Under the pieces are notes generated by a model, which was given only the letters and a program-made list of their open reading frames with translations, did not search any database and had not been told where the DNA came from. 64,000 bases of DNA, taken from an uncultured delta proteobacterium (GTDB taxonomy: Bacteria > Desulfobacterota > Desulfobacteria > Desulfobacterales > B30-G6). The stretch is from positions 32,385 through 96,384 of the forward strand of contig CAVOZW010000007.1 of NCBI GenBank assembly GCA_963701385.1, written 5' to 3'. Positions 19,654 through 37,146 of this stretch are shown here, piece after piece (within the stretch, counting starts at the first letter, position 1; every line of letters starts with the position of its first letter). The translations under genes were made by a program, and so were the position numbers.

Positions 19654-20481
19654 TTGATGTCAAAGCGAAATGCGTTTCTTCTCATGGTCCTGGTCACGCT
19701 GCTCTGGAGTACCAATGGATTGCTGATCAAGCTAGTGTCCTGGTCGCCCATGTCAATCTCCGGGTTACGCAGCCTGTTTGCTGCCGCAGTATTGCTGCCT
19801 TTCCTGGGTAAGCCGCGCCATTTGGCGTCATTCGACACGCTGGTGGGCAGTTTAGGATTTGCAGGGGCACTGATCACTTTTGTCATCGCCACCAAGTTGA
19901 CAACAGCTGCCAACGCCATTTTTTTGCAACTGACGGCGCCCGTATATGTAGCCCTGCTGTCGGGATGGATCCTCGGGGAACGTATCAGGGTTTTGGACTG
20001 GGTTATCACCGGCATCATTATTTCGGGAATGCTGCTCTTTTTTGGCGACAAACTCACAGTTGACGGTTTCTGGGGAAATATATGCGCCATTATCAGTGCC
20101 ATGTGCTGGGCTATTTTTGTTCTTTTCTCACGCAGGCAGAAAGACGATGCACCGCTCAAGATTCCAATTCTGGGCCACATCATCTGCACCCTTTTGGGCC
20201 TACCCTTTATCATCACTGCCGGACCACCTGAATCGGGATGGTTCTGGATCGTTCCTATGGGTTTTATCGGGGCCGGTCTGTCATTCGTTCTCTACACGGC
20301 TGTCATCAAGCGCCTGAAAGCGATCGAGGCTATCATCACCCAGACGATCGAACCCATTTTCAATCCAGTTTGGGTATTTCTGGTAATTGGCGAAGCCCCG
20401 GGGCCTTGGGCACTGCTGGGAGGGGTAGTTGTCCTTTCGTCCGTTACCTTGCATGCGGTCTTACGACAGCAAACAGATTAG
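19654..20481 (+). CDS. EamA/DMT-family transporter
   Basis: 275 aa, ~10 helices, with two EamA-like halves (LLWSTNGLLIKLV... and ...FVLYTAVIKRLKA). Confidence 0.8.
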   Translation: MMSKRNAFLLMVLVTLLWSTNGLLIKLVSWSPMSISGLRSLFAAAVLLPFLGKPRHLASFDTLVGSLGFAGALITFVIATKLTTAANAIFLQLTAPVYVALLSGWILGERIRVLDWVITGIIISGMLLFFGDKLTVDGFWGNICAIISAMCWAIFVLFSRRQKDDAPLKIPILGHIICTLLGLPFIITAGPPESGWFWIVPMGFIGAGLSFVLYTAVIKRLKAIEAIITQTIEPIFNPVWVFLVIGEAPGPWALLGGVVVLSSVTLHAVLRQQTD

Positions 20482-20517
20482 AACCCGGCTGTTTAACGAA
20501 ATGGGCTGACATATAAT

Positions 20518-22950
20518 TTAATTTTTCGTATTTGGATCCACCAGCGGTAGTTTTGCGACCTTGGCTTTTACGCGCTGGTCCATCACCTGAACCTCCAGTT
20601 CGCGACCGTCATTGGCCAGTTCAAGGGGCAGGTATACCAGGCCGATATCCTTGCCGATGGTGTATCCGTAGCTGCCCGAACGGATGCGGTCGATGACTTT
20701 GCCGCCGGCATATACGGATTCACCGCCATAGAGATTGCCGCCGGCCTCCATGGTAAGTGCTACCAGCGTGGAACCCATTCCCTGCTTTTGTATTTTTTCC
20801 AGAGCCTCTTTGCCGATAAAATCGAATTTGCGCATATGCACGAACTTTCCTAAACCGGCTTTAAGGGGATTATCCCGCGGGGTAATATCACCACTCCAGT
20901 ACAAATAACCCTTTTCTATCCGTAAGGCATCCAGAGCCTTGTAACCGGCCGGTTGAATGCCATGCTCTTTGCCGGCTGTCATAAGCGCATCCCAGACCGT
21001 CAAGGCATCCTCCGGTTGAACGTACAGTTCCCAGCCAAGCTCACCAACATAGCTTACCCGCTGAGCCCATAGGCTGACATTTTCTATCTTGACAGCTTGG
21101 GCCGTCATGTAGGGAAAGGCTTCGTTTGACAGGTCACTGTCGCATACGGATCCAAATACCTTACGGGACGCTGGGCCCCATAACCCTAAACAACTCAGGC
21201 GTTCGGTCTCATCTTCAATCACAACCGACCCATCGCCCGGCATGTGCAGCTGGATCCATCCGAAATCGTTGGACACGAAAGAGGTTCCGGAAATGATCCT
21301 GAATTCATCCTCTTTCAGGCGCGTGACAGTCACATCGCTTTCAATTCCGCCTTTTGGATTGAGAAACTGGGTATAGGTTACCCTGCCCACAGGCGAGTCG
21401 ATATCATTGGCGGCCAGTTCCTGAAGAAGGCCCAGGGCCCCGGAACCGCGCACTCGAATCTTGCCGAAAGAGGTCATGTCGAAGAGCGCCACCCGCTCAC
21501 GGGCGGCTTTTACTTCACTGCCCACCAGATCAAAGAAAGGCGGTCGCTCCCAACCCCAGTTTTTCTGATCGGCACCCGCCTGTCTCCAGGGTTTTGCGGC
21601 ATCAAAGTAATTTGCCCGTTCCCAGCCGTTTTTTAGCCCGAAGACGGCACCCAGGCCTTTTAATCGGTCATAAAGGGGGCTGGTGCGTAAGGGTCGTCCC
21701 CACTCGTTTTCATCGTTGGGATAACGCAGGTGATAATAGTACCGGATCACTTCACGGCATTGTTCAACACGGAAGGTTTTGTCTTTCAGGTGTGGCCCGA
21801 AGCGCCGGATGTTCATTTCATGGGTATCGATGGAAGTCTCGCCTTCCAGAATCCACTCCGCCATCAGCATGCCCACGCCGCCACCGCCGGCAATACCGTT
21901 ATCGGAACCGCCGGCCGCAACATAGAATCCCTTGAGGCCGGGAACCGGACCCATGGCATAATAGCCGTCCGGTGTGAACGCATCAGGACCGTTGATAAGC
22001 TCGATTACCTGGGCTTGATTCAGGATGGGAATCCGCTTCATGGCGCCTTCCATGATGCCCTCAAACAACTCCCACTCGCCAGGCAGCAACGTCTGGGTAA
22101 AGCCCCATGGAACACCGTCTGTAGACCATGGTTTGGGATTGGTTTCAAATCCGCCCACCAGATAGGAACCGACATCCTCCCGACAGTAGAAAAGTCTGTC
22201 CGGATCTCTGATAACCGGCGTTTGTCTCGGCAATTCATGCCCTTCGATGGGTTTGGTGGTCAGGTACTGGTTCATCATAGAAACGATGGGGATGTGAACA
22301 CCCACCATTTCTCCGATGCGTGGCGCCCACTGGCCGGCGGCATTGACCACGCATTCGGTCTTGATGCTGCCGTGATCGGTTACGACTTCCTTAACCTCCC
22401 TGTTTCCTGAAAGCTTAATACCGGTGACAAGCACGTTGGTATGGATGTCAACACCCATTTTTCTGGCCAATCTCGCAAACTCGTATGTAATCCCGCTGGG
22501 GTCGATGTGCCCATCGTCCGGCACGTAAACAGCGCCGTAAAGACTCTCATCGCTCAGCTGGGGGCAACGTTCCATGACTTCTTTGGGCGATATGATATCG
22601 GCGGTCAGCCCGATGGCTTTGGCCCGACTTACCTCCCTTTGCAAGGCCTTCAAACGGTCTTTGGTACTGGCCAGCCGCAAGCTTCCCACCGTGTGCCAGC
22701 CCAGGGAATCACCGCCCTCCCCTTTGGCCAACTCATTGTAAAGATTGATGGTATAATTCATGACCTTCATGAGCGCCGGTGAGGTACGAAACTGGGAAAC
22801 CAGACCGACCGAATGAAAGGTCGTGCCGCTGGTAAGTTCACCTTTTTCCAGCAGAACGACATCGGTACAGCCCGCCTTGGCAAGATGGTAGGCCACGCTG
22901 GTTCCGAAAATGCCGCCACCGATAATGACGACCCGGGCTTGATTTCGCAT
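20518..22950 (-). CDS. dimethylglycine/sarcosine-dehydrogenase-like enzyme: FAD oxidoreductase (DAO) fused to GcvT folate-binding aminomethyltransferase domain
   Basis: N-terminal dinucleotide fold VVIIGGGIFGTSVAYHLAKAG. 810 aa. The C-terminal half has the GcvT-like pattern (FDMTSFGKIRVRG...YVGELGWELY...RIEKGY). Confidence 0.85.
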   Translation of the reverse strand: MRNQARVVIIGGGIFGTSVAYHLAKAGCTDVVLLEKGELTSGTTFHSVGLVSQFRTSPALMKVMNYTINLYNELAKGEGGDSLGWHTVGSLRLASTKDRLKALQREVSRAKAIGLTADIISPKEVMERCPQLSDESLYGAVYVPDDGHIDPSGITYEFARLARKMGVDIHTNVLVTGIKLSGNREVKEVVTDHGSIKTECVVNAAGQWAPRIGEMVGVHIPIVSMMNQYLTTKPIEGHELPRQTPVIRDPDRLFYCREDVGSYLVGGFETNPKPWSTDGVPWGFTQTLLPGEWELFEGIMEGAMKRIPILNQAQVIELINGPDAFTPDGYYAMGPVPGLKGFYVAAGGSDNGIAGGGGVGMLMAEWILEGETSIDTHEMNIRRFGPHLKDKTFRVEQCREVIRYYYHLRYPNDENEWGRPLRTSPLYDRLKGLGAVFGLKNGWERANYFDAAKPWRQAGADQKNWGWERPPFFDLVGSEVKAARERVALFDMTSFGKIRVRGSGALGLLQELAANDIDSPVGRVTYTQFLNPKGGIESDVTVTRLKEDEFRIISGTSFVSNDFGWIQLHMPGDGSVVIEDETERLSCLGLWGPASRKVFGSVCDSDLSNEAFPYMTAQAVKIENVSLWAQRVSYVGELGWELYVQPEDALTVWDALMTAGKEHGIQPAGYKALDALRIEKGYLYWSGDITPRDNPLKAGLGKFVHMRKFDFIGKEALEKIQKQGMGSTLVALTMEAGGNLYGGESVYAGGKVIDRIRSGSYGYTIGKDIGLVYLPLELANDGRELEVQVMDQRVKAKVAKLPLVDPNTKN

Positions 22951-23092
22951 GCTTTCTCTCCTCTGATTTCAATAGGCTGTTTAATGTATCGACAAATATA
23001 ACTTGTACATATAAAAGGTTTGAGATTATACGTAGGTTTGTTCGCCTTAAAATTTACACTTTTTACTGCTAATCAATTGCGGGTTATGCTGC

Positions 23093-23998
23093 ATGAATCT
23101 CAACCAGTTAAAAATTTTTTACATGGCCGCCAAACGAGGAAACCTGAGCAAGGCTGCGGAAGACCTCTTCATTACCCAGCCGGCGGTTACCAAGGGCATT
23201 CAACGAATTCAGGAGCACTACGATATCCGGCTGATGGATCGTTTCGGGAAAAAAATGGTATTGACCCACGCGGGAGAGGTCCTTTTCAATATTGCCGAAA
23301 AAATTTTCGAGCTGGAAAAACATGCCGAAGAAAGCATCCGCGAGTTCAAGCAGCGAAAAAAAGGACGCATTCGCATTCAAGCCAGTGAAAGTTTCGGCGC
23401 CTATTACCTGCCCTCCATTATGAATCCCTTTAGCAAGGCCCATCCATTGATACGTATTTCGGTGAATATCCTCCCCAGCGAGCATGTGGTCAACAATATT
23501 GCCGATTTAGAATGCGATATCGGATTTGTCTCCTATCCCATCGAGCATGACAAGGTATTTATCCGTGAGATACTCGAAGACCAGCTTGTCTTCATTTTAC
23601 CTCCGGATCATCCCATCTGCCGACGCAAACACTTTAAACCCAAGGATCTGGAAGGCAACCCGATGATCGTTCATGAAAAAAAATCGACGCCGCATCAGGT
23701 TTTCCATGAGTTTATCGAGAAAAATGAAATAGCCGTCACCTCGTCCTTAGAACTCTCGAGCAATCGGGCCATAAAACTGGCCGTTGAAAGCGGCCTGGGT
23801 ATTGCCCTGATCAGCCGGAAAGTTGCCGATGAAGAAATCCAAGCCGGTAAATTGATAGCTATCCCGGTTCCGGACCTGTCCATAAAAAGAAAATTTTACC
23901 TGGTTCATCACAAGGAAAAATTTATTTCGAATACCCTGCAACGCTTTATCGATCAGGTTGATCGATGGGCCGACGAATATGCAAGGCAGCTATCCTAA
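23093..23998 (+). CDS. LysR-family transcriptional regulator
   Basis: HTH MNLNQLKIFYMAAKRGNLSKAAEDLFITQPAVTKGIQRIQ. 301 aa. Divergent from the DMGDH-like gene, the classic LysR layout. Confidence 0.9.
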   Translation: MNLNQLKIFYMAAKRGNLSKAAEDLFITQPAVTKGIQRIQEHYDIRLMDRFGKKMVLTHAGEVLFNIAEKIFELEKHAEESIREFKQRKKGRIRIQASESFGAYYLPSIMNPFSKAHPLIRISVNILPSEHVVNNIADLECDIGFVSYPIEHDKVFIREILEDQLVFILPPDHPICRRKHFKPKDLEGNPMIVHEKKSTPHQVFHEFIEKNEIAVTSSLELSSNRAIKLAVESGLGIALISRKVADEEIQAGKLIAIPVPDLSIKRKFYLVHHKEKFISNTLQRFIDQVDRWADEYARQLS

Positions 23999-24333
23999 CG
24001 AGTTAATATCTTTTTGCCGGGGAAGGCACTTGAGATCAGATCGGCCGCTTTTTTTTTGTCACAGGTTCCAAACTCATCACTGCTCCCATACACAATGATG
24101 GTACCGCCTTCGTCAAACCGAACCCACGCGCCACCGGCCGGCACCAGCATCGAATTTTCGAATCCCAGGTCTTGAATTTCCTTGTTCGTGTTCTTTAGAA
24201 TTTCACGATGCCATTCATCGCCTGAACGAAGGCATACAAAGCCGTTGGCCTTCCCGCCCACAATACGGATCAACAGTATCTTTCCGCGATATCCTTCCCG
24301 AAAATCAACGGGGGCAATCAAATGCTGTGACAT
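23995..24333 (-). CDS. hypothetical protein (112 aa)
   Basis: Intact ORF co-oriented with the HAD/ALDH genes (MSQHLIAPVDFREGYRGKILLIRIVGGKANGFVCLRSGDEWH...). Weak SD and no recognised motif. Confidence 0.45.
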   Translation of the reverse strand: MSQHLIAPVDFREGYRGKILLIRIVGGKANGFVCLRSGDEWHREILKNTNKEIQDLGFENSMLVPAGGAWVRFDEGGTIIVYGSSDEFGTCDKKKAADLISSAFPGKKILTR

Positions 24334-24454
24334 GCGTCCACACTTTCAAACCATTTTAAAAACCTGATAAGAAATTCTGTCAAATGTCTTTTGGCTCGCT
24401 GTAGCGGCTTAAATCTCCCGGTATTAAGAATAGCCGCTTTGGGTCCGATGGGTG

Positions 24455-25171
24455 TCACCCCAACAGCTCTAAAAGATCAATCAGCTGATCGAGTCGTGTG
24501 ATGATGGGAGAATCGGTGTCAACATCCGGCCAGTTCCGTTTTACCGAATGATGCTTGAGCCACACTGGCTGGATCCCTGCATTTTTCGCCCCGCAAATAT
24601 CTATCCGCCAGTCGTCGCCCACGAAAACGGCCTCGGGTGGAAAAACATTCAATTGTTCCAAACACAATCGAAAAGGTTCGACTTCGGGTTTCGGTGCTAT
24701 CCCCGATGCGCCTGCAACAACAATGACCTGAAAAAACCTTTCGAGTTTGGGAAACAGGGACAGACGATGATTGCCCGAGCTTTTCTGCCCCTGGGTGTTG
24801 GTAACGAGGGCCAATCGATACTTGTGTGAGAGATTTTCCAGTACTTGCATGGTTTCCGGGAAGGGATTGGTTCGCGAGCCAACCCCTTCCCAGTATTCAT
24901 TTTCCCACGTTTCAAAGCGTTCTGGATCCGGTTTGTGGTTTAACGCCTCATAGACTGCCTGCCATATGGCCTGTCTTGAAAAATTTGAATGCCGATGAAA
25001 TTCTTTACGAATCCGACGATATCGATCTAAAAAATCCTCCCAGGACAACTCGCCCGCTCTGGATGCCATATCGGAAAAAAGTCTCTCCTGGGCTTCTTTT
25101 TCAGCTGTACGAAACGCATCGGCCGAGTCGACCAGGGTTTGACCAAAATCAAACAGTACCGCCTTTATCAT
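24455..25171 (-). CDS. HAD-superfamily hydrolase (subfamily IA-like) lacking the D+2 general acid
   Basis: Motif I is VLFDFGQTLVD (D-x-G instead of D-x-D). Motif II LALVTNT. Motif III K in APKPEVEPF. Motif IV FVGDDWRIDICGA. The start abuts the ALDH stop. Confidence 0.85.
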   Translation of the reverse strand: MIKAVLFDFGQTLVDSADAFRTAEKEAQERLFSDMASRAGELSWEDFLDRYRRIRKEFHRHSNFSRQAIWQAVYEALNHKPDPERFETWENEYWEGVGSRTNPFPETMQVLENLSHKYRLALVTNTQGQKSSGNHRLSLFPKLERFFQVIVVAGASGIAPKPEVEPFRLCLEQLNVFPPEAVFVGDDWRIDICGAKNAGIQPVWLKHHSVKRNWPDVDTDSPIITRLDQLIDLLELLG

Positions 25172-26560
25172 TTAATCCTGGCCCCATTTCTCTATGTACC
25201 CCGCGCATAGATCCTCTGCAGACGGGATGTACTCTTCTTTGGGGATGGACAGCAGGGTATAATTGAGAAAGTTTTCCCAGTTGATGTTGCCGCTGAATAT
25301 ATTCCCGGCCCAGGAACCACAGCCCAGCGTATCAGTCGTGGGCAGACCGGTAACCCATCCACCGCTGTTGGCATGGGCGTGTGGCATGTTGCAGACGATC
25401 CGTCCCACATTCGCCCGCAGGGCGAGTTTGACGCGTCGCTCATCGTTTTCCGAATGAATGGAGGTGGAGTGCCCCTCGCCGGAAAACTTGAGAATTTTCT
25501 CCAACCGATCCAGCATCTCATCGAAATCGGTCCATTTCCATACCGTGAGTACCGGTGATATTTTTTCACCAGAAAACCGGTCTTCGGGGCCGATCTTTTC
25601 ACCGACCACCATCAGGAATTTGGTATCCTCAGGAACATTCAAACCCGCTTTTTCTGCAATAAATGTTGCCGGCCTGGCCACGATGTCACGGTTCAAGTGG
25701 CTCCCGTCCGGCCACATATACTTTCTGAGGGTTTCGCGTTCGTCCGTGCTGCACATATAACCACCTTCTGATTTAAGTGCCTCTAGCATGTCGTCGTAAA
25801 TACTTTCATAGAGGGCCACGGCATTTTCAGAAGAACAGGATGCCGAGTTGTTGGCAATCTTTGACAAGCGGATTTTATTGGCCGCAGCAGCCAGGTCGGC
25901 GGTTTCATCGACAATGGAAACGACATTGCCGGCCCCAACGGTCTGTGCCGGCTTGCCGGCAGCATAAACAACCTTGACCAAGGCTGCACCGCCTGTTGCA
26001 ACGGCATAGTCGCAATGGGCCATGACTTCGGCGGTTTTGGCATGACTGGTCTTTTTGATGCACTGCATCAGATCCACGGGTGCGCCGATCTTTTCCAGTG
26101 CTTTGCGAGCATGCTGAACCGTTTCATAAGAGGTCTTCTGGGTTCGCGGGTGAGGAGACACGATCTGAGCATTTCTCGTTTTCAGGGTACTCAGGGACAG
26201 GCAGCAGATGGTGGATTCGGGATTGGTACAGGGTACCACATTGGCAATCACGCCAATGGGCTTGGCGTATTTGCGTATACCGAGGGCTTTATTCTCCTCG
26301 ATGAGTCCACAGGTTTTGGCATTGCGCATGTCATAGAGCGTCCCGAGGGTTTTGTTCTTGATCTTATTTACCTTGTCCTGGGCGTTGCCAATGCCGGATT
26401 CATCCACGGCCATATGACCGAGTTTCACCCGAACATCCTCTTTCATAAACTCCCATGCCACGGCTTCAACCATTTCGTTGACTTTCTCCTGGGGCCAGAA
26501 CTCAACTTCCTTGAAGGCCTTTCGGGCGCGTGAATACATCTCTTGAACATTGTCTTCCAT
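25172..26560 (-). CDS. CoA-acylating aldehyde dehydrogenase of the SucD/SauS/EutE type
   Basis: 462 aa. Catalytic Cys block NNSASCSSENA. C-terminal TTDTLGCGSWAGN and PHPRTQKTS blocks resemble Clostridium SucD-type acylating dehydrogenases. GAGGAG SD. Confidence 0.85.
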   Translation of the reverse strand: MEDNVQEMYSRARKAFKEVEFWPQEKVNEMVEAVAWEFMKEDVRVKLGHMAVDESGIGNAQDKVNKIKNKTLGTLYDMRNAKTCGLIEENKALGIRKYAKPIGVIANVVPCTNPESTICCLSLSTLKTRNAQIVSPHPRTQKTSYETVQHARKALEKIGAPVDLMQCIKKTSHAKTAEVMAHCDYAVATGGAALVKVVYAAGKPAQTVGAGNVVSIVDETADLAAAANKIRLSKIANNSASCSSENAVALYESIYDDMLEALKSEGGYMCSTDERETLRKYMWPDGSHLNRDIVARPATFIAEKAGLNVPEDTKFLMVVGEKIGPEDRFSGEKISPVLTVWKWTDFDEMLDRLEKILKFSGEGHSTSIHSENDERRVKLALRANVGRIVCNMPHAHANSGGWVTGLPTTDTLGCGSWAGNIFSGNINWENFLNYTLLSIPKEEYIPSAEDLCAGYIEKWGQD

Positions 26561-26590: not shown

Positions 26591-26630
26591 TATAATTTTT
26601 GGATCTTCTCCCAATTAGATGGGAGAAAGG
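26591..26630 (-). repeat. palindromic upstream element, copy A (TCTCCCA-ATTAGA-TGGGAGA plus an A/T box)
   Basis: Read toward the gene: TCTCCCATCTAATTGGGAGA-AGATCCAAAAATTATAA. The hairpin ends 46 nt before the ALDH start codon (26560). Confidence 0.7.
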
Positions 26631-26777: not shown

Positions 26778-27911
26778 CTAATTTAAGGGCAAGCTGTATC
26801 CCATCTCTTGAAAGGCCTCTTTGGCCACAACAAAAAAATCCCCGATATCCTTTTCCGTAATAAGGCCCAAGTTACACAACCGGAAGGTCTGGAGACCGAA
26901 CATTTTTCCCGGGTAAATGGTAAACCCCCGTTCGAAACAGTAATCGTGCAGCTTGAAAAAATCGAACTTATCGTCTTCCGGTGCCCGCACGGTCACCACC
27001 AGATGCCCTTGAATCTTTTTGTCGATCACCGTTCCAAGACCCATTTCCGCCAGCCCTTTGTGAACCGCCTCCCAGCACTTGGTCAGCCTAGCCCATCGGG
27101 TCTGCTCCCCCTCTTGAAAGTACTCTTTGATGGCCTGCTGCAATGCATACATGGTTTGCACAGGGGGAGTAAAATGCATCTCTCCGACACGCTCAAAAAA
27201 ATCGTACTGCATGAACAGGTTGCAGTAATAGGAGCGCGTGGGGTAGTCTTTTGATTTTTTGATCTCTTCAATGTTACCGATCGTCCAGGAAGCACCGGTC
27301 ATGGCGGCGAGCCCCTTTTGCGCCGAAGACATGAGAAAGTCGATATTCTGTTCTTGAATGTCTATGGGAAGCAGGCCGTAGGTCGATATGGTGTCCACCA
27401 CGAAAATGGCACCGTTGTCATGCGCCATGCGACCGATTTCCTTTATGGGGTTGAGGACGCCTGTACCGGTTTCATGGTGGACGGTTGCCACCACGGCGAT
27501 GTCCTTTTCCTTTTCCAGCGTATCTTTTACAACCGCAAGGTCCGGCAGTTCGGTGGAAGAGAACTTGAGATCGACACAGGGGATATGGTAATATTCGGCG
27601 ATCTCCACCATCCTGGCCGAGTAGGCCCCATTGTTGACCACGCATATTTTTTTGCCTTTAGGAACCAGCGAGTTCACCAGGACATCCTGGATAATGGTTC
27701 CGGAACCGGTAAATATGACCGCACTATATTTTTCAGGATCCCCGTGAACCACCCTCACAAGATCTTTGCGAACACTGGTCATGATGTCCACGAATTCCTG
27801 TTCTCTGGGACAAATGTCCGGCACGACCTGAGCGTATTTCACGGCGTCGCTGGTGGTTGCCGGACCCGGGTTCAGCAAAACATTTCTTTTGACAGGTTTG
27901 ATCACTTCCAT
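26778..27911 (-). CDS. class-V aminotransferase, PhnW-like (2-aminoethylphosphonate:pyruvate transaminase family)
   Basis: Contains LLNPGPATTSDAVK and the PLP-lysine block SSAQKGLAAMTG. 377 aa. AGGGAGG SD. The substrate assignment rests on family resemblance plus the PhnS-like transporter nearby. Confidence 0.75.
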   Translation of the reverse strand: MEVIKPVKRNVLLNPGPATTSDAVKYAQVVPDICPREQEFVDIMTSVRKDLVRVVHGDPEKYSAVIFTGSGTIIQDVLVNSLVPKGKKICVVNNGAYSARMVEIAEYYHIPCVDLKFSSTELPDLAVVKDTLEKEKDIAVVATVHHETGTGVLNPIKEIGRMAHDNGAIFVVDTISTYGLLPIDIQEQNIDFLMSSAQKGLAAMTGASWTIGNIEEIKKSKDYPTRSYYCNLFMQYDFFERVGEMHFTPPVQTMYALQQAIKEYFQEGEQTRWARLTKCWEAVHKGLAEMGLGTVIDKKIQGHLVVTVRAPEDDKFDFFKLHDYCFERGFTIYPGKMFGLQTFRLCNLGLITEKDIGDFFVVAKEAFQEMGYSLPLN

Positions 27912-29095: not shown

Positions 29096-29979
29096 TGTTT
29101 GTATTCTCCTTCTTCCTTTTGTTTCTTGGCGTATTCCTGTCGTTCCGCCTGCTTGGGAACAATTCTGTCCTCAGGCCCCACATACTTGATCATGGACAAG
29201 TCTATCATCTGCACCATCGGTTCGTTTCTGCTGGCCCCCCATGCACGTCCCTTTTTCATATTGAACAGCGCATGCGCCGCACAGCTGAATCCTCGAACCA
29301 CACTGCCGATACACCATCCCGCATTCGGCGAAAAGCCAATTTCCATCAGGGCGGTGTTCCCAGAGCCCACCACGTTCACCCCCACATAGGAGCGTCCATC
29401 CGCCTTGCGCCTGGCGTGAAAGTGTTTTTCCACGGCCCTTTGAAATTCCAGATAAACCCCTTTGAGTTCCAGTTCTTCTTGCTTGAGGTGGATCGGTTCC
29501 GCCCTGGGATCACTGTCGATGTGCTGGGGTTGACCCATACCCATGACGGGTCGCCCGGCTTCCATGTATTCATCCACCAGAATTTTGGCCATTTCATCGA
29601 TGGTTTTGCCCTCCTTTTGGGCACGTTCCAGGTACTTGTTTAACATGTACCCGTGAGCCGCTCCCGGGCCATGGACACCACCAAAAGTAGAAACCGCTGC
29701 CGCCACACAAACGGGAAGGTTCGGTCTGCCTGCACTCACACCGATGGCACCCACCGCCGATGGTGACATGGAATGCTCCAGGAACACCCCCATTTCGTAC
29801 TTGAGCATTTTTTCTTCTTTTTGGGTGGGAATTCGGTCTTGAAAGAGGACAAACATGGCATCATAAAACGAATAGCCCTCTTCAGCCATGTCACTGAGGT
29901 TGTACCCGCGCATCACGGTTTTTTCTTCCGTTTTGTAAGAAATAGATGTCTTTCTTCTAACCGACGGTTTTCTCTCCAT
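29083..29979 (-). CDS. citrate-synthase/citryl-CoA-lyase-fold protein, divergent (subunit B)
   Basis: MRGYNLSDMAEEGYSFYDAMFVLFQDRIPTQKEEKMLKYEMGVFLEHSMSPS...FGGVHGPGAAHG...GMGQPQHIDSDPRA. Start chosen at ATG 29979, behind a strong SD (GGAGGAAAAA). The track start 30084 is unlikely. Confidence 0.65.
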   Translation of the reverse strand: MERKPSVRRKTSISYKTEEKTVMRGYNLSDMAEEGYSFYDAMFVLFQDRIPTQKEEKMLKYEMGVFLEHSMSPSAVGAIGVSAGRPNLPVCVAAAVSTFGGVHGPGAAHGYMLNKYLERAQKEGKTIDEMAKILVDEYMEAGRPVMGMGQPQHIDSDPRAEPIHLKQEELELKGVYLEFQRAVEKHFHARRKADGRSYVGVNVVGSGNTALMEIGFSPNAGWCIGSVVRGFSCAAHALFNMKKGRAWGASRNEPMVQMIDLSMIKYVGPEDRIVPKQAERQEYAKKQKEEGEYKQWVI

Positions 29980-30356: not shown

Positions 30357-30389
30357 CCTTTCCCAATTAAATGGGAGAAGCCCTATTAT
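30357..30389 (+). repeat. palindromic upstream element, copy B (TTCCCA-ATTAAA-TGGGAGA plus an A/T box)
   Basis: CCTTTCCCAATTAAATGGGAGA-AGCCCTATTATTAT. The hairpin ends 43 nt before GTG 30422 of the SGNH-like gene. Confidence 0.6.
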
Positions 30390-30421
30390 TATGTAAGGTT
30401 ACCTGTTCTGAGGTCTCTAGC

Positions 30422-31090
30422 GTGTTACATCAGGTCCTGTTTATCGGTAACAGTCATACCTATTTGAATTACATGCCCCGAATGCTTTCGGCGCTCGTCG
30501 CTTCAGAGGATCGGGGTTTCACGCTGCTTGTCGATCAATGCACAGGGGACGGGACCGGTCTTGAGTGGCACTGGAAAAATCCGCCTACCCGGGATGCCAT
30601 CCGGAAAAAACCGTGGGACTATGTTGTTTTGCAGGAACGTAGCGCTGGCCCGTTGGAAGAGCCGGACGCTTTTGCACGGTATGCCGAGTTGCTGGATGCA
30701 GAGATTCGAAGTCAAGGCGCCAAAACAATCTTGTTTTTGACCTGGGCCAACCGTTCACGGCCCGAAACCCAGGCTGTTTTGACAAATGCCTACACCATGA
30801 CGGCATGCAAGCTCAAAGCCGCCCTGGCGCCGGTGGGTCGGGCGTGGGAGGCTATCCACAGGATTGCTCCCGGGTGTGAATTGCATCATCGGGATGGCCG
30901 TCATGCCAATCCTGTCGGATCTTACCTCACGGCCTGTGTGTTTTATTCCGTGTTGTTCAACACAAGCCCCCAAGGGCTTACCGGACGCTTCTATTTCAAA
31001 GGTAAGATGTGGGTGGATCTGGAAAAAGACAGGGCCTCGTTGCTGCAGCAAGTGGCCTGGGAGACCTTCTCGAACAGGGGCCCCCTGTAA
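30422..31090 (+). CDS. SGNH/GDSL-like hydrolase-fold protein
   Basis: Block I VLFIGNSHTY and block V DGRHANPVGSYL. The GTG 30422 start (GAGG 8 nt upstream) is preferred over the track ATG 30371, which lies inside a palindromic upstream element. Confidence 0.55.
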   Translation: MLHQVLFIGNSHTYLNYMPRMLSALVASEDRGFTLLVDQCTGDGTGLEWHWKNPPTRDAIRKKPWDYVVLQERSAGPLEEPDAFARYAELLDAEIRSQGAKTILFLTWANRSRPETQAVLTNAYTMTACKLKAALAPVGRAWEAIHRIAPGCELHHRDGRHANPVGSYLTACVFYSVLFNTSPQGLTGRFYFKGKMWVDLEKDRASLLQQVAWETFSNRGPL

Positions 31091-31406
31091 ATTGCCTGGA
31101 TTACCCATTTCGCTCTATCTATGGCGAAAATCGAAAGTTGAGCTATAACTTTTGATTATTCTTAATATGATAAAAATTAGGTTGCATAATACAGGGTTTT
31201 ATTTAACTATCGCGCATTAATTAATAAACCATATTCATCGACGCCATGTTGCTAATTGCAGTTGAAGGTTGCGCGGTAAAATTACACTATTTTTGCTTGG
31301 CTTATTATACCGACTTTGGTACTGTTGCGCTGATTTAAGGTAAATGTTGGCGCGTATTCAATCATCGATATTTTTCTAATGCTACACAATCAGAAGGAGG
31401 AAAAAA

Positions 31407-32462
31407 ATGAAACGTTTTCATTCAAACAGTTCAGTTCGTTTCTGGGGGATCTTGCTCGGGTTTGCTGCCGTGCTGGCTTTCATCGGCGTCTCCAACGTGT
31501 GCGCCGCGGAGATTCTAGTCTATACCGCACTCGAAGACGATGAATTGGCCATCTACATGAAAGATTGGGAAGCCAAACACCCCGATATCAAGGCAAACAT
31601 TGTGCGGGACTCCACGGGCATTGTCACGGCAAAATTGCTGGCGGAAAAAGACAATCCCAGGGCGGATCTCATCTGGGGTGTGTCAGCCACCAGTCTGCTC
31701 GTCTGTGACCAGGTCGGCATGCTCATCGGGTACAATCCCAAGGGAATTGAAAAGCTAAAACCCGCTTTCTTTGATCAGAAGAACAAGGAAGCTCACTGGA
31801 CCGGCCTCAAAGCCTACATGACCGGTTTTGTGGGAAACACCATCGAAATGAAAGCCAAGGGGCTCAAAATGCCGCAGTCCTACGCGGATCTTCTGGACCC
31901 CATGTACAAAGGGCAACTCGTCATGCCCAATCCCGCTTCATCCGGAACCGGTTTTCTGACGGTTTCCGCCATTCTTCAGATCATGGGCGAAGAGGCCGGC
32001 TGGGATTACCTGGACAAACTCCACCAGAACATCGCCGTATACACCCATTCCGGTTCCAAGCCCGCCAAGATGGCCGGCAAAGGCGAATACCCCATCGGCA
32101 TCTCTTTTGCCTACCGGGGATTCAAACAAATGAAAAGCGGGGAACCGGTTGTGGTGGCCTTTCCCAAGGAAAAATCCGGATGGGAAGTTGAAGCCAACGG
32201 CCTCATAAAAAAGCCCAAGATCAAGAAAGAAGCCAAGATCTTCCTCGACTGGGCCATCAGCGACGACGCCTACAAAATGTATGCCACGGTCTATCCCATC
32301 ATCGGTTCCAAAGTGGTCCCGGTTACCGTACCCGATGGATATCCCGCGGATCCCGTCGTACAGCTCATCGACAACGACTTTGACTGGGCTGCAAGAAACC
32401 GTTCCGCGATCCTGAAAGAATGGACCATGCGCTACGACGGTAAGAGTGAGCCCAAAAGCTAA
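31407..32462 (+). CDS. ABC transporter periplasmic substrate-binding protein, PhnS-like (2-aminoethylphosphonate/Fe3+ cluster)
   Basis: Signal peptide, then [11 protein letters not shown]...[25 protein letters not shown]...[12 protein letters not shown]...[23 protein letters not shown]. From memory this matches the putative 2-AEP binding-protein family. GGAGGA SD. Confidence 0.75.
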
Positions 32463-32500
32463 TCGGTCGGGCACACTGCATTATAAGAGATTAACCTTTA

Positions 32501-32540
32501 CCGGCGTGCCCCTTAATGGGGCATGCCGGCCCTTTTTTTA
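32501..32540 (+). terminator. rho-independent terminator/attenuator between the binding-protein and ATPase genes
   Basis: CCGGCGTGCCCC-TTAAT-GGGGCATGCCGG (12-bp stem, one G-T) followed by CCCTTTTTTTAA. Intra-operon hairpins after SBP genes are common in ABC operons. Confidence 0.7.
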
Positions 32541-32553
32541 AGGAGTCCTTCCG

Positions 32554-33681
32554 ATGCCACCCGAATCGGCAAAAACTAACAATGGCGGTACGTTTTTGGA
32601 AGTCAAACATGTGACAAAAACATTTGGGCGTTTTGTTGCGCTGGAAGATGTCTCCATTGACGTATACCCCGGGGAACTGGTCTGTATCTTAGGGCCCAGC
32701 GGTTGCGGGAAAACCACCCTTTTGCGTGTCATCGCAGGATTGGAAGAACAGAATGTGGGTCAGGTTTTTTTAAAAGGCAAGGATATCTCTCGCATGCCCA
32801 CCTCCCAACGGGAATGCGGTATCGTTTTCCAATCCTATGCCCTGTTCCCAAACCTGACGGCCACTCAGAACGTGGCCTATGGTCTCAAGGGCTCAAAATT
32901 CGAAAAAGGGCAAAAAGTCGCCAGGACCCGGGAGATGCTCGAGTTGGTCGACTTATCTGAAATCGGAAAAAAATACCCTGCTCAGCTTTCGGGCGGTCAG
33001 CAGCAACGGGTGGCGCTGGCTCGCGCGCTGGCACCAAGCCCTGCCATGCTGCTCCTGGATGAACCGCTTTCAGCGCTCGATGCACAGGTCCGGATTTATC
33101 TTAGAAGTGAAATTCGTGATCTCCAGCAACGCCTCCAGATTACCACTATCATGGTTACCCATGACCAGGAAGAAGCCCTGACCATGGCGGATCGGATCAT
33201 CCTCATGGATGCCGGCCGCATTATCCAGTGTGCCTCGCCCCAGTCCATCTATCACACACCGGATGATACGTTTGTGGCGGGGTTTATCGGCGCCATGAAT
33301 TTTCTGGAGGGCTGGACAGTCATAAATGAAAACACCCTCACCTACGGAAACCTGACCCTTAAAACAATGAACGGAAAAGCCAAGCAGTTTCAGGGCAGAG
33401 AAACGACGGTCACCATACGCCCTGAAGACATCAGGGTTCTCGATGAAGATAAGAGCGGTGAAAATATTCTTTTCACGGTGGTTGAAAAAATCGAGTTTCG
33501 CGGCGCATCTTACCGCTTGTTCCTGCGCCTGAAAATCGACGATCCGGGTCTGGACGCTCCGGTGATCGAGGTGGATCTCGCCGCCGAGAAGATCAAGCGA
33601 TTCAAAATCAAACTGGAGAGCATAGTGCCGGTTTACCTCCCCCCGGAACGATTGTTGATATTTAGACCAGCAGGATCTTGA
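32554..33681 (+). CDS. ABC transporter ATP-binding protein (PotA/PhnT-like, with C-terminal TOBE-like domain)
   Basis: Walker A GPSGCGKTT, signature LSGGQQQRVALARAL, Walker B LLLDEPLSALD, H-loop VTHDQ. Confidence 0.9.
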   Translation: MPPESAKTNNGGTFLEVKHVTKTFGRFVALEDVSIDVYPGELVCILGPSGCGKTTLLRVIAGLEEQNVGQVFLKGKDISRMPTSQRECGIVFQSYALFPNLTATQNVAYGLKGSKFEKGQKVARTREMLELVDLSEIGKKYPAQLSGGQQQRVALARALAPSPAMLLLDEPLSALDAQVRIYLRSEIRDLQQRLQITTIMVTHDQEEALTMADRIILMDAGRIIQCASPQSIYHTPDDTFVAGFIGAMNFLEGWTVINENTLTYGNLTLKTMNGKAKQFQGRETTVTIRPEDIRVLDEDKSGENILFTVVEKIEFRGASYRLFLRLKIDDPGLDAPVIEVDLAAEKIKRFKIKLESIVPVYLPPERLLIFRPAGS

Positions 33682-33811
33682 ACTTAAGAAGCATTTAGAA
33701 ACGATGTTATCAAGCGCAACAATGTCACCTCTTCGCAAGAAGTGCGACCACTCAGGAAAAATCTGGGCCAGCGGCGCGGAATAGGTAAATACAAAAGATC
33801 TCGGACAATCC

Positions 33812-35920
33812 ATGCCAACAATAGATACAATAAGTAACGAACAGGACATTCATAAAAACAAAACCGCATTCGATCCCCAAAGCGTGGTTTTAAAGAAGGT
33901 CCGCCAGAATACCAGCGCAGAGAACTGGCTCAAAAGGGCATTGATTTTCCTCCTGGTCCTCTGGATGCTCGTTGCCGTCGTTCTTCCCGTATACCAACTT
34001 ATCGATCGCAGCATGCACGCCGAAGTCCTGGTATCCATCTGGGGAAGTGACGATGTGCGCATTGGCGGAAGACGCGTCTATATTGACGGCGAAACCCTGC
34101 AATTGAATATCGACAAGAAATCGTTCCCCCTGACCAACAACATCCTTTCGTACGATGGTATCACGGTGGATATACGGGATAACCGCATCTACCAGGTATC
34201 CTGTACCAAAGCGATGAATTACGCAGAGCCGGTAAAGATAAAAGAGGTCACCACCCGGATTGATGGGGACCGCTATTTCATCGACGGTGTCCTGTTAGAG
34301 GGTGATGAATACAGTGGCCAGGTTGACCGATGGATCGGGCTGAGCAACTTTGTGAGCTATTTTACCAATGAAGCCCTCTACTATTCTGTTTTCAACAGTC
34401 TTTTCGTTTCCGTGGTCACCACCTTCGTCGCCGTCATTCTCGCGCTGGTATACGCCTATGCGGTCACCCGGACCCTGATTCCGGGAAAGGCCTTTTTCCG
34501 GGTGGTTGCCATGCTGCCCCTGTATGCACCCACCATGCTGTACGGTCTGTCACTTGTTTTTATCTTCGGCAACAAAGGATTCATTACTACCGGCTTTTTC
34601 GGCCACCTGCCTTGGCTGGCCTGGGATATCGGGCTGTACGGCCCCGTGGGAATTATCATCGCCGAGGTGGTGTTCACCTTTCCGGCCGCCTACATGATTC
34701 TCATGGTTTCGTTGCTCAACACCGACGCCCGACTCTACGAAGCGGCCATCAGCCTGGGTGCCAAAAAACCACGCATCTTTTTTACGGTGACCCTCCCCGG
34801 GATAAAGTTCGGCCTGGTAAGCGCTATTTTCGTCTGTTTTACCCTATGCTTTACCGATTTCGGTGCCCCCAAAGTCGTGGGCGGGAACTACAACATCCTG
34901 GCAGTTGATATTTACAAACAGGTCATCGGCCAGCAGAATTTTGGCATGGGCGCCACCATCAGCATTATTCTGCTCATTCCGGCGGTCATCTCCTTTATGG
35001 CGGATAGAATCGTACAGCGACGGCAGGTGGTCGCCATGACTGCCAGAAGCGTGCCCTATACACCCAAACGCAATTGGAGCACGGACACGGCGATGTTTAC
35101 CATCGCATCCCTGATTGCCGGTTTTATACTCGCCATGCTGTTTGCCGGTGGATTCGGATCCCTGGTAAAAATGTGGCCCTATGACTTCTCCCTCGGCCTG
35201 TGGCATTACACTTTTAGAGATGTAGGCGGCGGCGGATACGGTGCCTTCTGGAACAGTATCCGCATGGCAAGCTATTCGGCCATTCTCGGAACCATGATCA
35301 CCTTTGGATCGGCCTATCTCATCGAAAAAACCCGGCGGGTGGCCATTCTGAGACAGACGTCCTATTTTCTTTCCATTCTGCCCCTTGCGCTGCCCGGCCT
35401 GGTCATCGGCATCGCCTACATCTTTTTTTTCAATACCACGCACTTCACCATCCCGTTGACGAATATTTCAATCGCAAATCCGGCCTATGCCCTGTACGGT
35501 ACGCTCTGGATCCTGGTCATCGCCAATATCATCCATTTCTACACGGTCAGCTTTCTAACCGCCACCTCTGCACTGCGGCAACTCGACAAGGAATTCGAAA
35601 CCGTGTCCGAGTCCATGTCCGTTCCCTTTTATCGGACATTTTTCCGCGTAACCGTTCCGGTCTGCTTTCCGGCCATTGTAGAAATCGCCATGTACCTTTT
35701 TGTCAGTTCCATGGCAACGGTTTCGGCGGTTATTTTTCTGTATTCCTCGGACACGACCCTTGCGTCCGTGGCCGTCGTCAACATGGATGATGCCGGAGAT
35801 CAGGCGCCCGCAGCCGCCATGTGCATGCTCATCGTTCTTTCCAACATTGTAGTGAGAATCGCCAGCGAGGTGGTCAACGCGATTTTCAGAAGATCAACCT
35901 CGGCCTGGCGGACGAAATAA
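33812..35920 (+). CDS. fused double-domain ABC transporter permease (PhnU/PhnV- or FbpB-like) with large extracytoplasmic insert
   Basis: 702 aa with two permease halves, each ending in an EAA-like loop (YEAAISLGAKKPRIFFTVTLP and SESMSVPFYRTFFRVTVP). About 150 hydrophilic residues lie between TM1 and TM2. Confidence 0.85.
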   Translation: MPTIDTISNEQDIHKNKTAFDPQSVVLKKVRQNTSAENWLKRALIFLLVLWMLVAVVLPVYQLIDRSMHAEVLVSIWGSDDVRIGGRRVYIDGETLQLNIDKKSFPLTNNILSYDGITVDIRDNRIYQVSCTKAMNYAEPVKIKEVTTRIDGDRYFIDGVLLEGDEYSGQVDRWIGLSNFVSYFTNEALYYSVFNSLFVSVVTTFVAVILALVYAYAVTRTLIPGKAFFRVVAMLPLYAPTMLYGLSLVFIFGNKGFITTGFFGHLPWLAWDIGLYGPVGIIIAEVVFTFPAAYMILMVSLLNTDARLYEAAISLGAKKPRIFFTVTLPGIKFGLVSAIFVCFTLCFTDFGAPKVVGGNYNILAVDIYKQVIGQQNFGMGATISIILLIPAVISFMADRIVQRRQVVAMTARSVPYTPKRNWSTDTAMFTIASLIAGFILAMLFAGGFGSLVKMWPYDFSLGLWHYTFRDVGGGGYGAFWNSIRMASYSAILGTMITFGSAYLIEKTRRVAILRQTSYFLSILPLALPGLVIGIAYIFFFNTTHFTIPLTNISIANPAYALYGTLWILVIANIIHFYTVSFLTATSALRQLDKEFETVSESMSVPFYRTFFRVTVPVCFPAIVEIAMYLFVSSMATVSAVIFLYSSDTTLASVAVVNMDDAGDQAPAAAMCMLIVLSNIVVRIASEVVNAIFRRSTSAWRTK

Positions 35921-35955
35921 TCTCCGAAAACAACATGACCTTGATGAAGTTCTCG

Positions 35956-37146
35956 CTAAGTAGCCGGATTAGATGGGAACTCCTTTGAAAGCAGGTAGGC
36001 CAGGGGCAGCGTGGTAAGGGCTGTCAAACCGATAACGACAACGGTCAAGGCCACCCCTGCCGCGTCACTGAGCAAACCGAATACCGGTGGACCCAGGGCC
36101 GCCCCGATGATAATCGCCGTGTAAAACAAACCAAAAACACGCGGCGTATGGGTCGCTGAAACAAAATCGGCCACCGTCCCGTATAGCACGGATGAGGTCC
36201 CGTTCAGCACGATTCCGAGCAATGGCAGGAAGACATAAATGCCAGACAGCGACGCCCCATAGAGGTATATGATCCCCAAACCGGTAATGCCTTCGGTGAT
36301 GGTTATGGACGGGATGATACCGATTTTTTCAGCCAGAATGCCACAGATAAACTTTCCGAATGCCCCGCCAATAAAAAGCAAAGACAGGGCCAGACCGGTG
36401 GATTCCATGGGCATACCCTTGCCGATGAGCAAGAACGGCAGAAAGGTAATCAGCGTGGAGCGAACGGCCGTATCGATAAATCCGATGCTCGCTAAGGTCA
36501 AAAAAGCCTTTTTGTTTTCGATTCCCCACCCGCTGAATTTCTCATACGCCCGGCCTGTCTCGATATCCATGCCGCCGAAATGATTTCTGCGCAACAGTCC
36601 ATAAAGACCCAGCGTCATTACAAGGCCAAAAAGACCATACCCAAAACAGAGAACGCGCCAGCCGGTAATGGATAAAACTACGGCTGCGACAACCGGGAAA
36701 AGAAATTTTCCCATATCACCGGTGAAGTTATAGGTCCCCAGAGCGATGCGACGGTTGCCATGCGCATAGGCCTTGGATATCATCGATGAAGCCAGGGGAT
36801 GCTGCACCCCGGCACCCAGCCCGCCGATGATGAGAAGGGCACACAGGACGTAGATGTTGCGGCTGAAAGCGATCCCCATGAAGCTTACGGTCGTGACAAA
36901 GGTACCGAGCGTCAGCAGTCTGCGTTCACCGTAGCGTTCCCCCAGAAAGCCCGCCGGTATCTGAAACAAGGCCGTGGCACCTTCGAAACAGGTAATGATC
37001 AAGCCCACCTGCGTAAGAGAAAGCTGGAAAGCCATTTTCCAGAAAGGCAGCAGCACGGCCAGCCCGTCTGCAATACTGTCGTGGAAGATATGGAAAAGGC
37101 ACCCGCTGACGAGAATTTTTCTTTTACGGGAATTTTGGGTTGTCAT
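35956..37146 (-). CDS. MFS transporter
   Basis: 396 aa, 12 predicted helices, with a GERYGERRLL-type loop between TM2 and TM3. Confidence 0.85.
   Translation of the reverse strand: MTTQNSRKRKILVSGCLFHIFHDSIADGLAVLLPFWKMAFQLSLTQVGLIITCFEGATALFQIPAGFLGERYGERRLLTLGTFVTTVSFMGIAFSRNIYVLCALLIIGGLGAGVQHPLASSMISKAYAHGNRRIALGTYNFTGDMGKFLFPVVAAVVLSITGWRVLCFGYGLFGLVMTLGLYGLLRRNHFGGMDIETGRAYEKFSGWGIENKKAFLTLASIGFIDTAVRSTLITFLPFLLIGKGMPMESTGLALSLLFIGGAFGKFICGILAEKIGIIPSITITEGITGLGIIYLYGASLSGIYVFLPLLGIVLNGTSSVLYGTVADFVSATHTPRVFGLFYTAIIIGAALGPPVFGLLSDAAGVALTVVVIGLTALTTLPLAYLLSKEFPSNPAT

Follow-up and report, generated by a model that had tools for sequence, protein, structure and literature searches.

How does a bacterium use an aminophosphonate when its genome yields no PhnX, PhnA or PhnY above the cut-offs of their profiles? 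The question is raised by an island of genes in a stretch of 64,000 nucleotides (the window; positions 32,385-96,384, forward strand, of contig CAVOZW010000007.1, assembly GCA_963701385.1; all coordinates below are those of the window) from a sediment sulfate-reducer of the Desulfobacterales (B30-G6). The island brings together an importer and a transaminase for 2-aminoethylphosphonate (AEP), a CoA-acylating aldehyde dehydrogenase (ALDH), a hydrolase of the HAD family and two proteins with the citrate synthase fold, which we call CSA and CSB. Although our confidence stands only a little above even, we lean to the view that phosphonoacetaldehyde is converted here to phosphonoacetyl-CoA, and the latter to acetyl-CoA and phosphate, with the citrate-synthase-fold pair cutting the carbon-phosphorus (C-P) bond.

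The island and its substrate

Open reading frames between 19.6 and 37.1 kb were scanned with Pfam and NCBIfam, the curated cut-offs of the latter deciding membership. Every gene named in an earlier note on this DNA was found where that note had placed it, and its headline, a non-canonical aminophosphonate island lacking PhnX, PhnA and PhnY, holds up: the importer and the transaminase exceed their cut-offs, and the C-P enzymes are absent. The limits then given, 19654-37146, left out genes on the left: when PbfA was searched for across the genome, an extension on that side came to light, and the real span is about 13101-37146; four members had been overlooked (Janus/Ocnus, 23995-24333; PbfA, 15304-16677; PiT and DUF47, 13101-14817). 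The members are as follows.

13101..13749, minus strand: DUF47/PhoU_div protein, split by a frameshift (Pfam PF01865, 68.6 bits on the N-terminal part)
13876..14817, minus strand: phosphate transporter of the PiT/PHO4 family (Pfam PF01384, 244.6 bits)
15304..16677, plus strand: PbfA (NF049939, 712.5 bits, cut-off 525)
19654..20481, plus strand: EamA-family transporter (Pfam PF00892, 114 bits)
20518..22950, minus strand: FAD and folate enzyme resembling dimethylglycine dehydrogenase (DMGDH) (Pfam DAO/FAO_M/GCV_T/GCV_T_C; all NCBIfam matches below cut-off)
23093..23998, plus strand: LysR regulator (Pfam HTH_1 and LysR_substrate; phn_lysR TIGR03339, 186 bits, below the cut-off of 341)
23995..24333, minus strand: protein of the Janus/Ocnus family, to which the 14-kDa phosphohistidine phosphatase belongs (PF05005, 42 bits, cut-off 23)
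24455..25171, minus strand: hydrolase of the HAD-IA group whose motif I reads D-x-G (TIGR02253, 106 bits, below cut-off)
25172..26560, minus strand: CoA-acylating aldehyde dehydrogenase, AdhE/EutE/SucD/SauS family (SauS NF047625, 489 bits, below the cut-off of 600)
26778..27911, minus strand: PhnW-AepZ class-V transaminase (TIGR03301, 416 bits, cut-off 360.8)
28016..29095, minus strand: CSB, degenerate citrate-synthase-fold subunit, 359 aa (PF00285, 28 bits, cut-off 27)
29083..29979, minus strand: CSA, citrate-synthase-fold subunit, 298 aa (PF00285, 53 bits, cut-off 27)
30371..31090, plus strand: DUF4886 (SGNH-like) hydrolase (Pfam PF16227, 34 bits, cut-off 26.7)
31407..32462, plus strand: PhnS2 binding protein (TIGR03261, 440.5 bits, cut-off 392.75)
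32554..33681, plus strand: PhnT2 ATPase (TIGR03265, 463.8 bits, cut-off 457.7)
33812..35920, plus strand: PhnU2 fused permease (TIGR03262, 704.8 bits, cut-off 593.25)
35956..37146, minus strand: MFS transporter, peripheral, its conservation limited to the closest relatives (Pfam MFS_1, 149 bits)

CSA, CSB, PhnW, ALDH, HAD and Janus are thus all encoded on the minus strand, divergent from the importer on the plus strand. The three importer genes are adjacent (31407-35920), and each product lies above the curated cut-off of its AEP importer model. The binding protein is of the AEP type rather than an iron or polyamine type, giving 440 bits with PhnS2 against 45 bits with a thiamine/iron-type model. 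Of its 702 residues, PhnU2 aligns with its model only from residue 172 onward (model position 35), so that the protein carries some 140-170 extra residues at its N-terminus. The transaminase scores 416 bits as PhnW-AepZ against 101 bits with a glyoxylate-type model; narrower PhnW models were just missed (293 bits, cut-off 296; 280 bits, cut-off 400.8). PbfA, which belongs to NF049939, is an ammonia-lyase for (R)-1-hydroxy-AEP, which it turns directly into phosphonoacetaldehyde (PMC12366243, PMC8154272). By the measure of curated models, PhnS2T2U2 is shown to be an importer of the AEP type, with PhnW and PbfA as the predicted sources of phosphonoacetaldehyde.

The absence of the familiar enzymes extends from the island to the whole genome, which is 95.3% complete. 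In profile searches of that genome nothing passed the cut-offs for PhnX (TIGR01422), PhnA (TIGR02335), PhnY (TIGR03250), PhnJ or phosphoenolpyruvate (PEP) mutase, and the best match to TIGR01422 reached 61 bits where 220 are called for. PhnX was over its cut-off in none of 41 related genomes; PhnW was in 12, of which 11 also carry CSA, and PhnW adjoins the CSA/CSB pair wherever coordinates are given. Two complete chromosomes that bear these genes likewise have no PhnX, PhnA or PhnJ.

The citrate-synthase-fold pair and its cassette

The genes for CSA and CSB overlap by 13 nt, and the true start of CSA is at 29979, with GGAGG 7 nt upstream of it; the homologues are 298 aa long. Both proteins fall within PF00285, and for both the closest solved structure is the citryl-CoA lyase PDB 6hxp (E 2.5e-19 for CSA, 1.1e-11 for CSB); all NCBIfam cut-offs for citryl-CoA lyase (CCL) were missed (PRK06224 models, 113 bits for CSA and 95 for CSB, cut-off 212). 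In citrate synthase, His274 stabilizes the acetyl-CoA enolate, His320 is the second catalytic histidine, and Asp375 is the base that abstracts the proton. At these positions and at Arg329 of the DPR motif, in the numbering of the pig enzyme, the pair reads as follows.

His274 position: His103 in CSA, Tyr146 in CSB
His320 position: Gln150 in CSA, Val189 in CSB
Arg329 position: Arg159 in CSA, Ala198 in CSB
Asp375 position: Val204 in CSA, Leu239 in CSB

CSA, in other words, keeps two of the four canonical residues, those equivalent to His274 and Arg329, and CSB none, and neither set varies among the orthologues (70 of CSA, 66 of CSB). Beyond the canonical set, CSA has the conserved histidines H109, H153, H164 and H188. 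Among 81 full-length CCL-like relatives, 49 retain the aspartate. A quick maximum-likelihood tree groups CSA and CSB with certain single CCL-like proteins in a single clade (33 rows; SH-aLRT 99), whose members all lack the aspartate and have in common a C-terminal insertion that the 49 relatives with an aspartate do not have. Structure prediction supports a CSA/CSB heterodimer: ipSAE was 0.77, against 0.00 for the best control (58 of 80 solved complexes attained that mark, as did 2 of 110 mismatched pairs), pLDDT of the partners was at least 79, and the runs shared at least 83% of their contacts. This outcome may only reflect likeness to known dimers, since dimers of citrate synthase and of CCL have been solved. 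We propose that CSA is the catalytic subunit of a putative phosphonoacetyl-CoA C-P hydrolase.

A comparison of synteny places the pair in a conserved cassette. The core order CSA-CSB-PhnW-ALDH-HAD, followed by Janus or by a NudE-like NUDIX gene, recurs in 80 loci drawn from species genomes of several phyla: Desulfobacterales are the majority, accompanied by SAR324, several lineages of Planctomycetota, Latescibacterota, Anaerolineales, Hyphomicrobiales, Spirochaetales, Verrucomicrobiota and a symbiont of an Olavius worm. CSA is 81-97% identical in the 80 loci and 79-97% overall across phyla; the 120 best-matching database clusters have 298 aa and 79-91% identity, and just 28 of the proteins in a library of 1.84 billion representatives match it at E 1e-30. 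By tblastn, CSB is present in all 80 loci, PhnW in 64 (orthologues about 80% identical), ALDH in 62 (65-95% identical), HAD in 47, Janus in 18, where it follows the HAD gene, and the NudE-like NUDIX gene in 10-12. EamA genes flank the cassette in 28 loci, and orthologues of the LysR regulator (55-89% identical), of PbfA and of the DUF4886 protein occur in 22, 14 and 11. Other recurring neighbors are a zinc-dependent alcohol dehydrogenase (Zn-ADH) near the "phosphonate catabolism associated" family TIGR03366, PiT with DUF47, and HD hydrolases (6 loci); planctomycete loci add canonical PhnW, PbfA, a PhnX-like hydrolase below cut-off and pairs of MtmB-like genes.

Locus L024 unites the full set, with 12 orthologues in one co-directional operon, PbfA-PhnS2-PhnT2-PhnU2-PiT-DUF47-CSA-CSB-PhnW-ALDH-HAD-Janus, headed by PbfA. 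The PiT of the window is 74-77% identical to the one that stands between PhnU2 and CSA in L024 and L047, and orthologues of its DUF47 lie directly upstream of CSA in both. DUF47/PhoU_div is the usual partner of PiT. In the window the DUF47 gene is split, with its N-terminal part at 13333-13749 and its C-terminal part at 13101-13400 in another frame; the frameshift, near 13333-13400, is either the mark of a pseudogene or an error of assembly.

Several loci depart from the common plan. On one complete chromosome (L158; G042:C1:4364000-4382000) the cassette is split into halves about 310 kb apart, one holding CSA-CSB-PhnW-ALDH and the other a fragment of ALDH, HAD, NUDIX, LysR, EamA and a fragment of PbfA. 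Three loci of Planctomycetota (L084, L089, L098) have two tandem genes of the MtmB family (PF05369) between PbfA and CSA, and in L017 a URO-D-family gene is found close by; such genes may represent a corrinoid-type demethylation feeder for N-methylated phosphonates. PhnW of the closest relative (L020:12316-13444) gives two overlapping matches, pointing to a frameshift.

More distant members of the aspartate-less clade keep comparable company. In L100 a CSA homologue, 59% identical and with the same residue pattern, has a CSB-like partner, and the order is LysR, CSA', CSB', CoA-transferase A, CoA-transferase B, Zn-ADH, ferredoxin, aldehyde:ferredoxin oxidoreductase, ThiS and a fusion of a Na/Pi cotransporter with PhoU. 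A single, more distant CCL-like protein without the aspartate (family P0162) occurs in 53 metagenome loci, whose gene content was determined by targeted tblastn, in the order LysR-CoA-transferase A-B-CCL-NAD-dependent ALDH. PbfA is found there at 722 bits (L126) and 731 bits (L116), with orthologues of at least 70% identity in about 16 loci; L126 adds PhnS2T2U2 above the cut-offs, L116 a canonical PhnW of 501 bits, and loci of this type also carry a DMGDH-like gene 46% identical to that of the window. Neither PhnA nor PhnX was found among their annotated neighbors, and the CoA-transferase variants have no HAD. One aspartate-less clade is thus accompanied, each time amid phosphonate genes or phosphate transporters, by three putative non-orthologous ways from a phosphonate-derived aldehyde to an acyl-CoA: (i) the acylating ALDH of the window; (ii) aldehyde:ferredoxin oxidoreductase with CoA-transferase A/B, in L100; and (iii) NAD-dependent ALDH with CoA-transferase A/B, in the 53 metagenome loci. 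Because the cycle of a CoA-transferase closes only if the citrate-synthase-fold protein yields an acyl-CoA, its product is most simply acetyl-CoA. A further contig (P0150) holds a more distant aspartate-less pair with acyl-CoA dehydrogenase, CoA-transferase A/B, LysR and EamA, and may represent a sister system for a different acid.

The DMGDH-like enzyme of the window has orthologues in 4 of the 80 cassette loci as well as in L116 and L144 of the CoA-transferase variant. Since it recurs in AEP clusters of two variants, the suggestion that it feeds the pathway by demethylating N-methyl-AEP is plausible. We regard the island as catabolic for AEP and its 1-hydroxy form, and probably for the N-methyl form.

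How the C-P bond may be cut

The route that we favor would begin with the import of AEP, from which PhnW would form phosphonoacetaldehyde, as PbfA would from (R)-1-hydroxy-AEP; the DMGDH-like enzyme would bring in N-methyl-AEP by demethylation. The acylating ALDH would then oxidize phosphonoacetaldehyde, with CoA, to phosphonoacetyl-CoA. The CSA/CSB heterodimer would hold this thioester much as citryl-CoA lyase holds citryl-CoA, His103 of CSA polarizing the thioester so that the acetyl-CoA enolate departs as the leaving group from phosphorus. With water accepting the phosphoryl group, the products would be acetyl-CoA, which would enter the energy metabolism of the sulfate reducer, and phosphate, which PiT would export. 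Loss of the aspartate fits such a route, because an enolate that arises by bond cleavage calls for no abstraction of a proton. The earlier note had offered, as its second option, an acyl-CoA route through either phosphonoacetyl-CoA or sulfoacetyl-CoA involving the citrate-synthase-fold pair; comparative evidence favors the former version, and the latter loses ground to a true Xsc elsewhere in the genome, to PbfA and to the phosphate transporters.

The ALDH is a CoA-acylating enzyme of the AdhE/EutE/SucD type, and its nearest solved relatives are AdhE (282 bits; the alignment spans residues 3-438 and takes in the segment with the Cys) and SucD of C. kluyveri (256 bits). Its best model, SauS, describes an enzyme for sulfoacetaldehyde, an anionic analogue of phosphonoacetaldehyde, which speaks for the proposed route. 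It falls short of SauS itself, and the Xsc gene is on another contig. We propose that it is an acylating phosphonoacetaldehyde dehydrogenase.

A number of observations weigh against this scheme. Every step beyond phosphonoacetaldehyde is one that we infer. The acetyl-CoA enolate must be protonated, and the usual acid is missing. Full-text searches of the literature found no phosphonoacetyl-CoA in catabolism, the compound being mentioned in a single paper as a hypothetical biosynthetic product, and no description of a CoA-dependent route or of a role for the citrate synthase fold in phosphonate catabolism; specialist papers on AEP clusters mention neither citrate synthase nor CoA chemistry. Being below the cut-off for SauS, the ALDH could use acetaldehyde. 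One genome with the cassette has a true PhnX on another contig, a few planctomycete loci have a PhnX-like hydrolase (TIGR03351, 170 bits, below the cut-off of 218.9), and the search for PhnA had no positive control. Finally, the scheme leaves the role of HAD unexplained, and an orthologue of this protein, with its unusual D-x-G, is present in all five of the other cassette genomes checked, sometimes far from the locus. Some loci have no HAD within 10 kb; the idea that HAD is dispensable was dropped when orthologues were found elsewhere in those five genomes, in one of them within the split-off half of the cassette.

The last point leads directly to a different assignment of the chemistry, which was also the first option of the earlier note: HAD could be the actual C-P cleaver, an analogue of PhnX, with ALDH making acetyl-CoA from the acetaldehyde released and the citrate-synthase-fold pair acting elsewhere. 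Its start abuts the stop codon of ALDH, it accompanies the cassette in the genomes just mentioned, and the nearest solved relatives of ALDH are AdhE domains of the acetaldehyde type. Motif I of HAD, F-D-F-G-Q-T, aligns to the D-L-D-D of PH1655, which represents ordinary phosphatases, and the general acid two residues after the nucleophile (D+2) is missing; PhnX likewise has no such acid and does not need it. D8 is invariant among 41 orthologues, D+2 is Gly in 35 and Asp in 4, so that the DxD signature of phosphatases is not the rule, and the four exceptions count against a PhnX-like enzyme. R52, R55, R66 and H135, which include cap arginines, are invariant or nearly so, yet no cap lysine is (K56 in 29 of 41), and HAD matches neither TIGR01422 (at E 1e-5) nor TIGR03351. 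With no invariant cap lysine and no match to a PhnX model, a Schiff-base mechanism of the PhnX kind is unlikely. The CoA-transferase variants, moreover, have no HAD; to join phosphonoacetate to CoA, as they would, is sensible only if the citrate-synthase-fold protein cuts the C-P bond. This assignment would also give no function to the genes that are best conserved in the cassette (CSA, 79-97% identity). We consider HAD as cleaver improbable, though not negligible. For HAD itself we can offer a guess, that it salvages phosphonoacetate formed by stray hydrolysis of the thioester, since the variant in the window has no CoA-transferase and only the CoA-transferase variants could re-activate phosphonoacetate. 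HAD and Janus would both be conserved accessories. His42 of Janus is invariant in 14 orthologues, and phmmer finds no solved relative or PHPT1 with which to align it.

To an extent comparable to the HAD proposal, and so also at low probability, we entertain the idea that phosphonoacetyl-CoA does arise, and that the citrate-synthase-fold pair, rather than simply hydrolyzing it, performs a phosphoryl transfer or a condensation of the carbanion with a carbonyl partner. In the transfer version the phosphoryl group would pass from carbon to the enolate oxygen or to a residue of the enzyme, and the aspartate of HAD or the histidine of Janus would then remove it or pass it on. The recurrence of phosphohydrolases after ALDH (HAD in 47 loci, Janus in 18, NudE-like NUDIX in 10-12, HD in 6) is in keeping with this, as are a HAD without a general acid, which would be superfluous where the leaving group is good, and the additional conserved histidines of CSA (H109, H153, H164, H188). 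The CoA-transferase variants, however, have no conserved phosphatase (a histidine-phosphatase gene is present in 3 of 53 loci only), the cassette contains no conserved kinase or enzyme to supply a carbonyl, and the idea is chemical speculation. The specific claim that the pair passes phosphoryl to a carrier, whether the HAD aspartate, the Janus histidine protein or an enol-phosphate intermediate, we rate somewhat lower still.

That the substrate is instead an analogue seems to us a slim prospect. Taurine would give sulfoacetaldehyde and sulfoacetyl-CoA, or beta-alanine would give malonate semialdehyde and malonyl-CoA, to be decarboxylated by the citrate-synthase-fold pair; SauS is the best model for ALDH, cleavage with an enolate leaving would presumably suit malonyl-CoA as well, and the PhnS2T2U2 models are named "putative". 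PhnW-AepZ and PbfA are nevertheless above equivalog cut-offs, PiT/DUF47 or Na/Pi transporters lie within the operons, and neither a sulfite exporter nor a taurine-type transporter turned up among the conserved neighbors. A sulfonate is further disfavored because a true Xsc, the sulfoacetaldehyde acetyltransferase, on another contig (G000:C17:293152-294897, 913 bits, cut-off 676) gives sulfoacetaldehyde a canonical route of its own. The taurine-like and beta-alanine-like substrates that the earlier note had left in play are accordingly less attractive than AEP. Hardest of all to credit is a biosynthetic direction, with AEP made from an acyl-CoA, PhnW acting as AepZ and EamA as exporter: EamA genes are common nearby and TIGR03301 presumably covers biosynthetic AepZ enzymes too, but the cluster includes a binding-protein-dependent importer, the catabolic lyase PbfA, LysR and a demethylase, PEP mutase was not found over its cut-off in the genome, and we know of no precedent for forming a C-P bond from acetyl-CoA.

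Surroundings, known pathways and meaning

Immediately to the left of the island are genes for the HmcABC complex of sulfate respiration (8759-12803, minus strand). Between PbfA and EamA lies an AT-richer islet of about 3 kb (16678-19653) encoding a GAF-only protein, a GyrI-like protein and small open reading frames. In the close relative L025, PbfA follows EamA/LysR and the islet is absent, so that it looks like a lineage-specific insertion. Directly after the PhnS2 gene is a strong hairpin with a T-run (32501-32529, plus strand; 12 pairs, 10 of them G-C), placed as an attenuator would be that gives the binding protein in excess over the membrane subunits. The palindrome TCTCCCA-N6-TGGGA occurs at 26607-26626, 30359-30378 and 46591-46610 (6 strand-wise matches, 0.46 expected), each time with an A/T-rich box behind it and some 45 nt ahead of a start codon, respectively that of ALDH, of DUF4886 with the importer, and of a gene for a CPR-C4-like protein (46658-47311) just after pyrF. 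As the third site is outside the island, the palindrome is not an island-specific operator. Scans for promoter and terminator consensus sequences gave counts equal to the shuffled expectation and were uninformative on operon structure.

Judged by its gene content, the island is one of the hydrolytic AEP-degradation clusters, with final steps that correspond to neither PhnWX nor PhnWYA. To our knowledge, few enzymatic cleavages of the AEP C-P bond are known: those by PhnX, PhnA, the oxidative PhnY*/PhnZ and C-P lyase. With the PhnW-PhnX pathway and its PbfA branch (PMC8154272, PMC10590968, PMC12366243) the island has in common the type of importer, PhnW, PbfA, LysR and a feeder that oxidizes or demethylates amines, and also the underlying logic, that the C-P bond becomes labile once a carbonyl stands beta to phosphorus. 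It differs in that no PhnX is over the cut-off in island or genome, in that the proposed electron sink is a thioester enolate and not a lysine enamine, and in that carbon would leave as acetyl-CoA with no free acetaldehyde. PhnX, PhnA and PalA all work by an electron sink beta to phosphorus, a principle that the island would share with a thioester in that role. Like the PhnW-PhnY-PhnA pathway, in which PhnY is a phosphonoacetaldehyde dehydrogenase and PhnA a phosphonoacetate hydrolase, the proposed route oxidizes phosphonoacetaldehyde before C-P cleavage, and L126 and L116 use an NAD-dependent ALDH, as PhnY is; neither PhnA nor PhnY is over its cut-off, however, the acid level would be reached as a CoA thioester, directly or via CoA-transferase, and the cleavage is assigned to a citrate-synthase-fold protein whereas PhnA is an enzyme of the alkaline phosphatase superfamily.

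Parallels for the individual steps are found outside phosphonate metabolism. Ccl of Hydrogenobacter thermophilus (6hxp) and the CCL module of ATP-citrate lyase are similar to CSA and CSB in size and fold, and the Ccl reaction releases acetyl-CoA from a substituted acetyl-CoA by way of an enolate, as we propose for the pair. CSA and CSB depart from Ccl in having no Asp, in the Gln that CSA has for the second His, in the loss of the canonical residues from CSB, in forming an obligate pair of paralogues with an extra C-terminal insertion, and in a phosphonate context rather than that of the reverse TCA cycle. SauS (NF047625; Bilophila pathway, PMC10413351) acylates CoA with a two-carbon aldehyde bearing an anionic group, as ALDH would; the neighbors of ALDH are phosphonate genes, with no SauT/SauCD, Xsc or isethionate lyase context. 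The CoA-transferase variants, in turn, recall malonate decarboxylase: they would activate phosphonoacetate, a malonate isostere, by exchange with acetyl-CoA, and cleavage would regenerate acetyl-CoA. Malonate decarboxylase and citrate lyase operate by such a thioester exchange, followed by a cleavage that regenerates the acetyl thioester. They belong, however, to other enzyme families, use the thiol of an acyl carrier protein where the variants would use free CoA, and lose CO2 or oxaloacetate where the variants would lose phosphate.

Among natural phosphonates AEP is the commonest, and it abounds in marine invertebrates and sediments. Should our proposal prove right, the route would be a new hydrolytic pathway with a new metabolite, phosphonoacetyl-CoA, and would add a new chemistry to the citrate synthase fold, in which an acetyl-CoA enolate leaves from phosphorus. 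It would also correct an annotation, since the genes concerned are now labeled citrate synthase or citryl-CoA lyase and would be overlooked by gene-based surveys of phosphonate cycling. Were the pair to pass its phosphoryl group to a carrier, the energy of the C-P bond could be conserved or channeled, making AEP an energy substrate for anaerobes and giving a bacterial PHPT1-like protein a role in phosphoryl relay. In the larger context, the hydrolytic route would explain phosphonate use by sulfate reducers, planctomycetes and other anaerobes that have phnW and AEP importers and no known C-P enzyme, and it would let them take the carbon of AEP directly as acetyl-CoA, with no free acetaldehyde and no oxygen.

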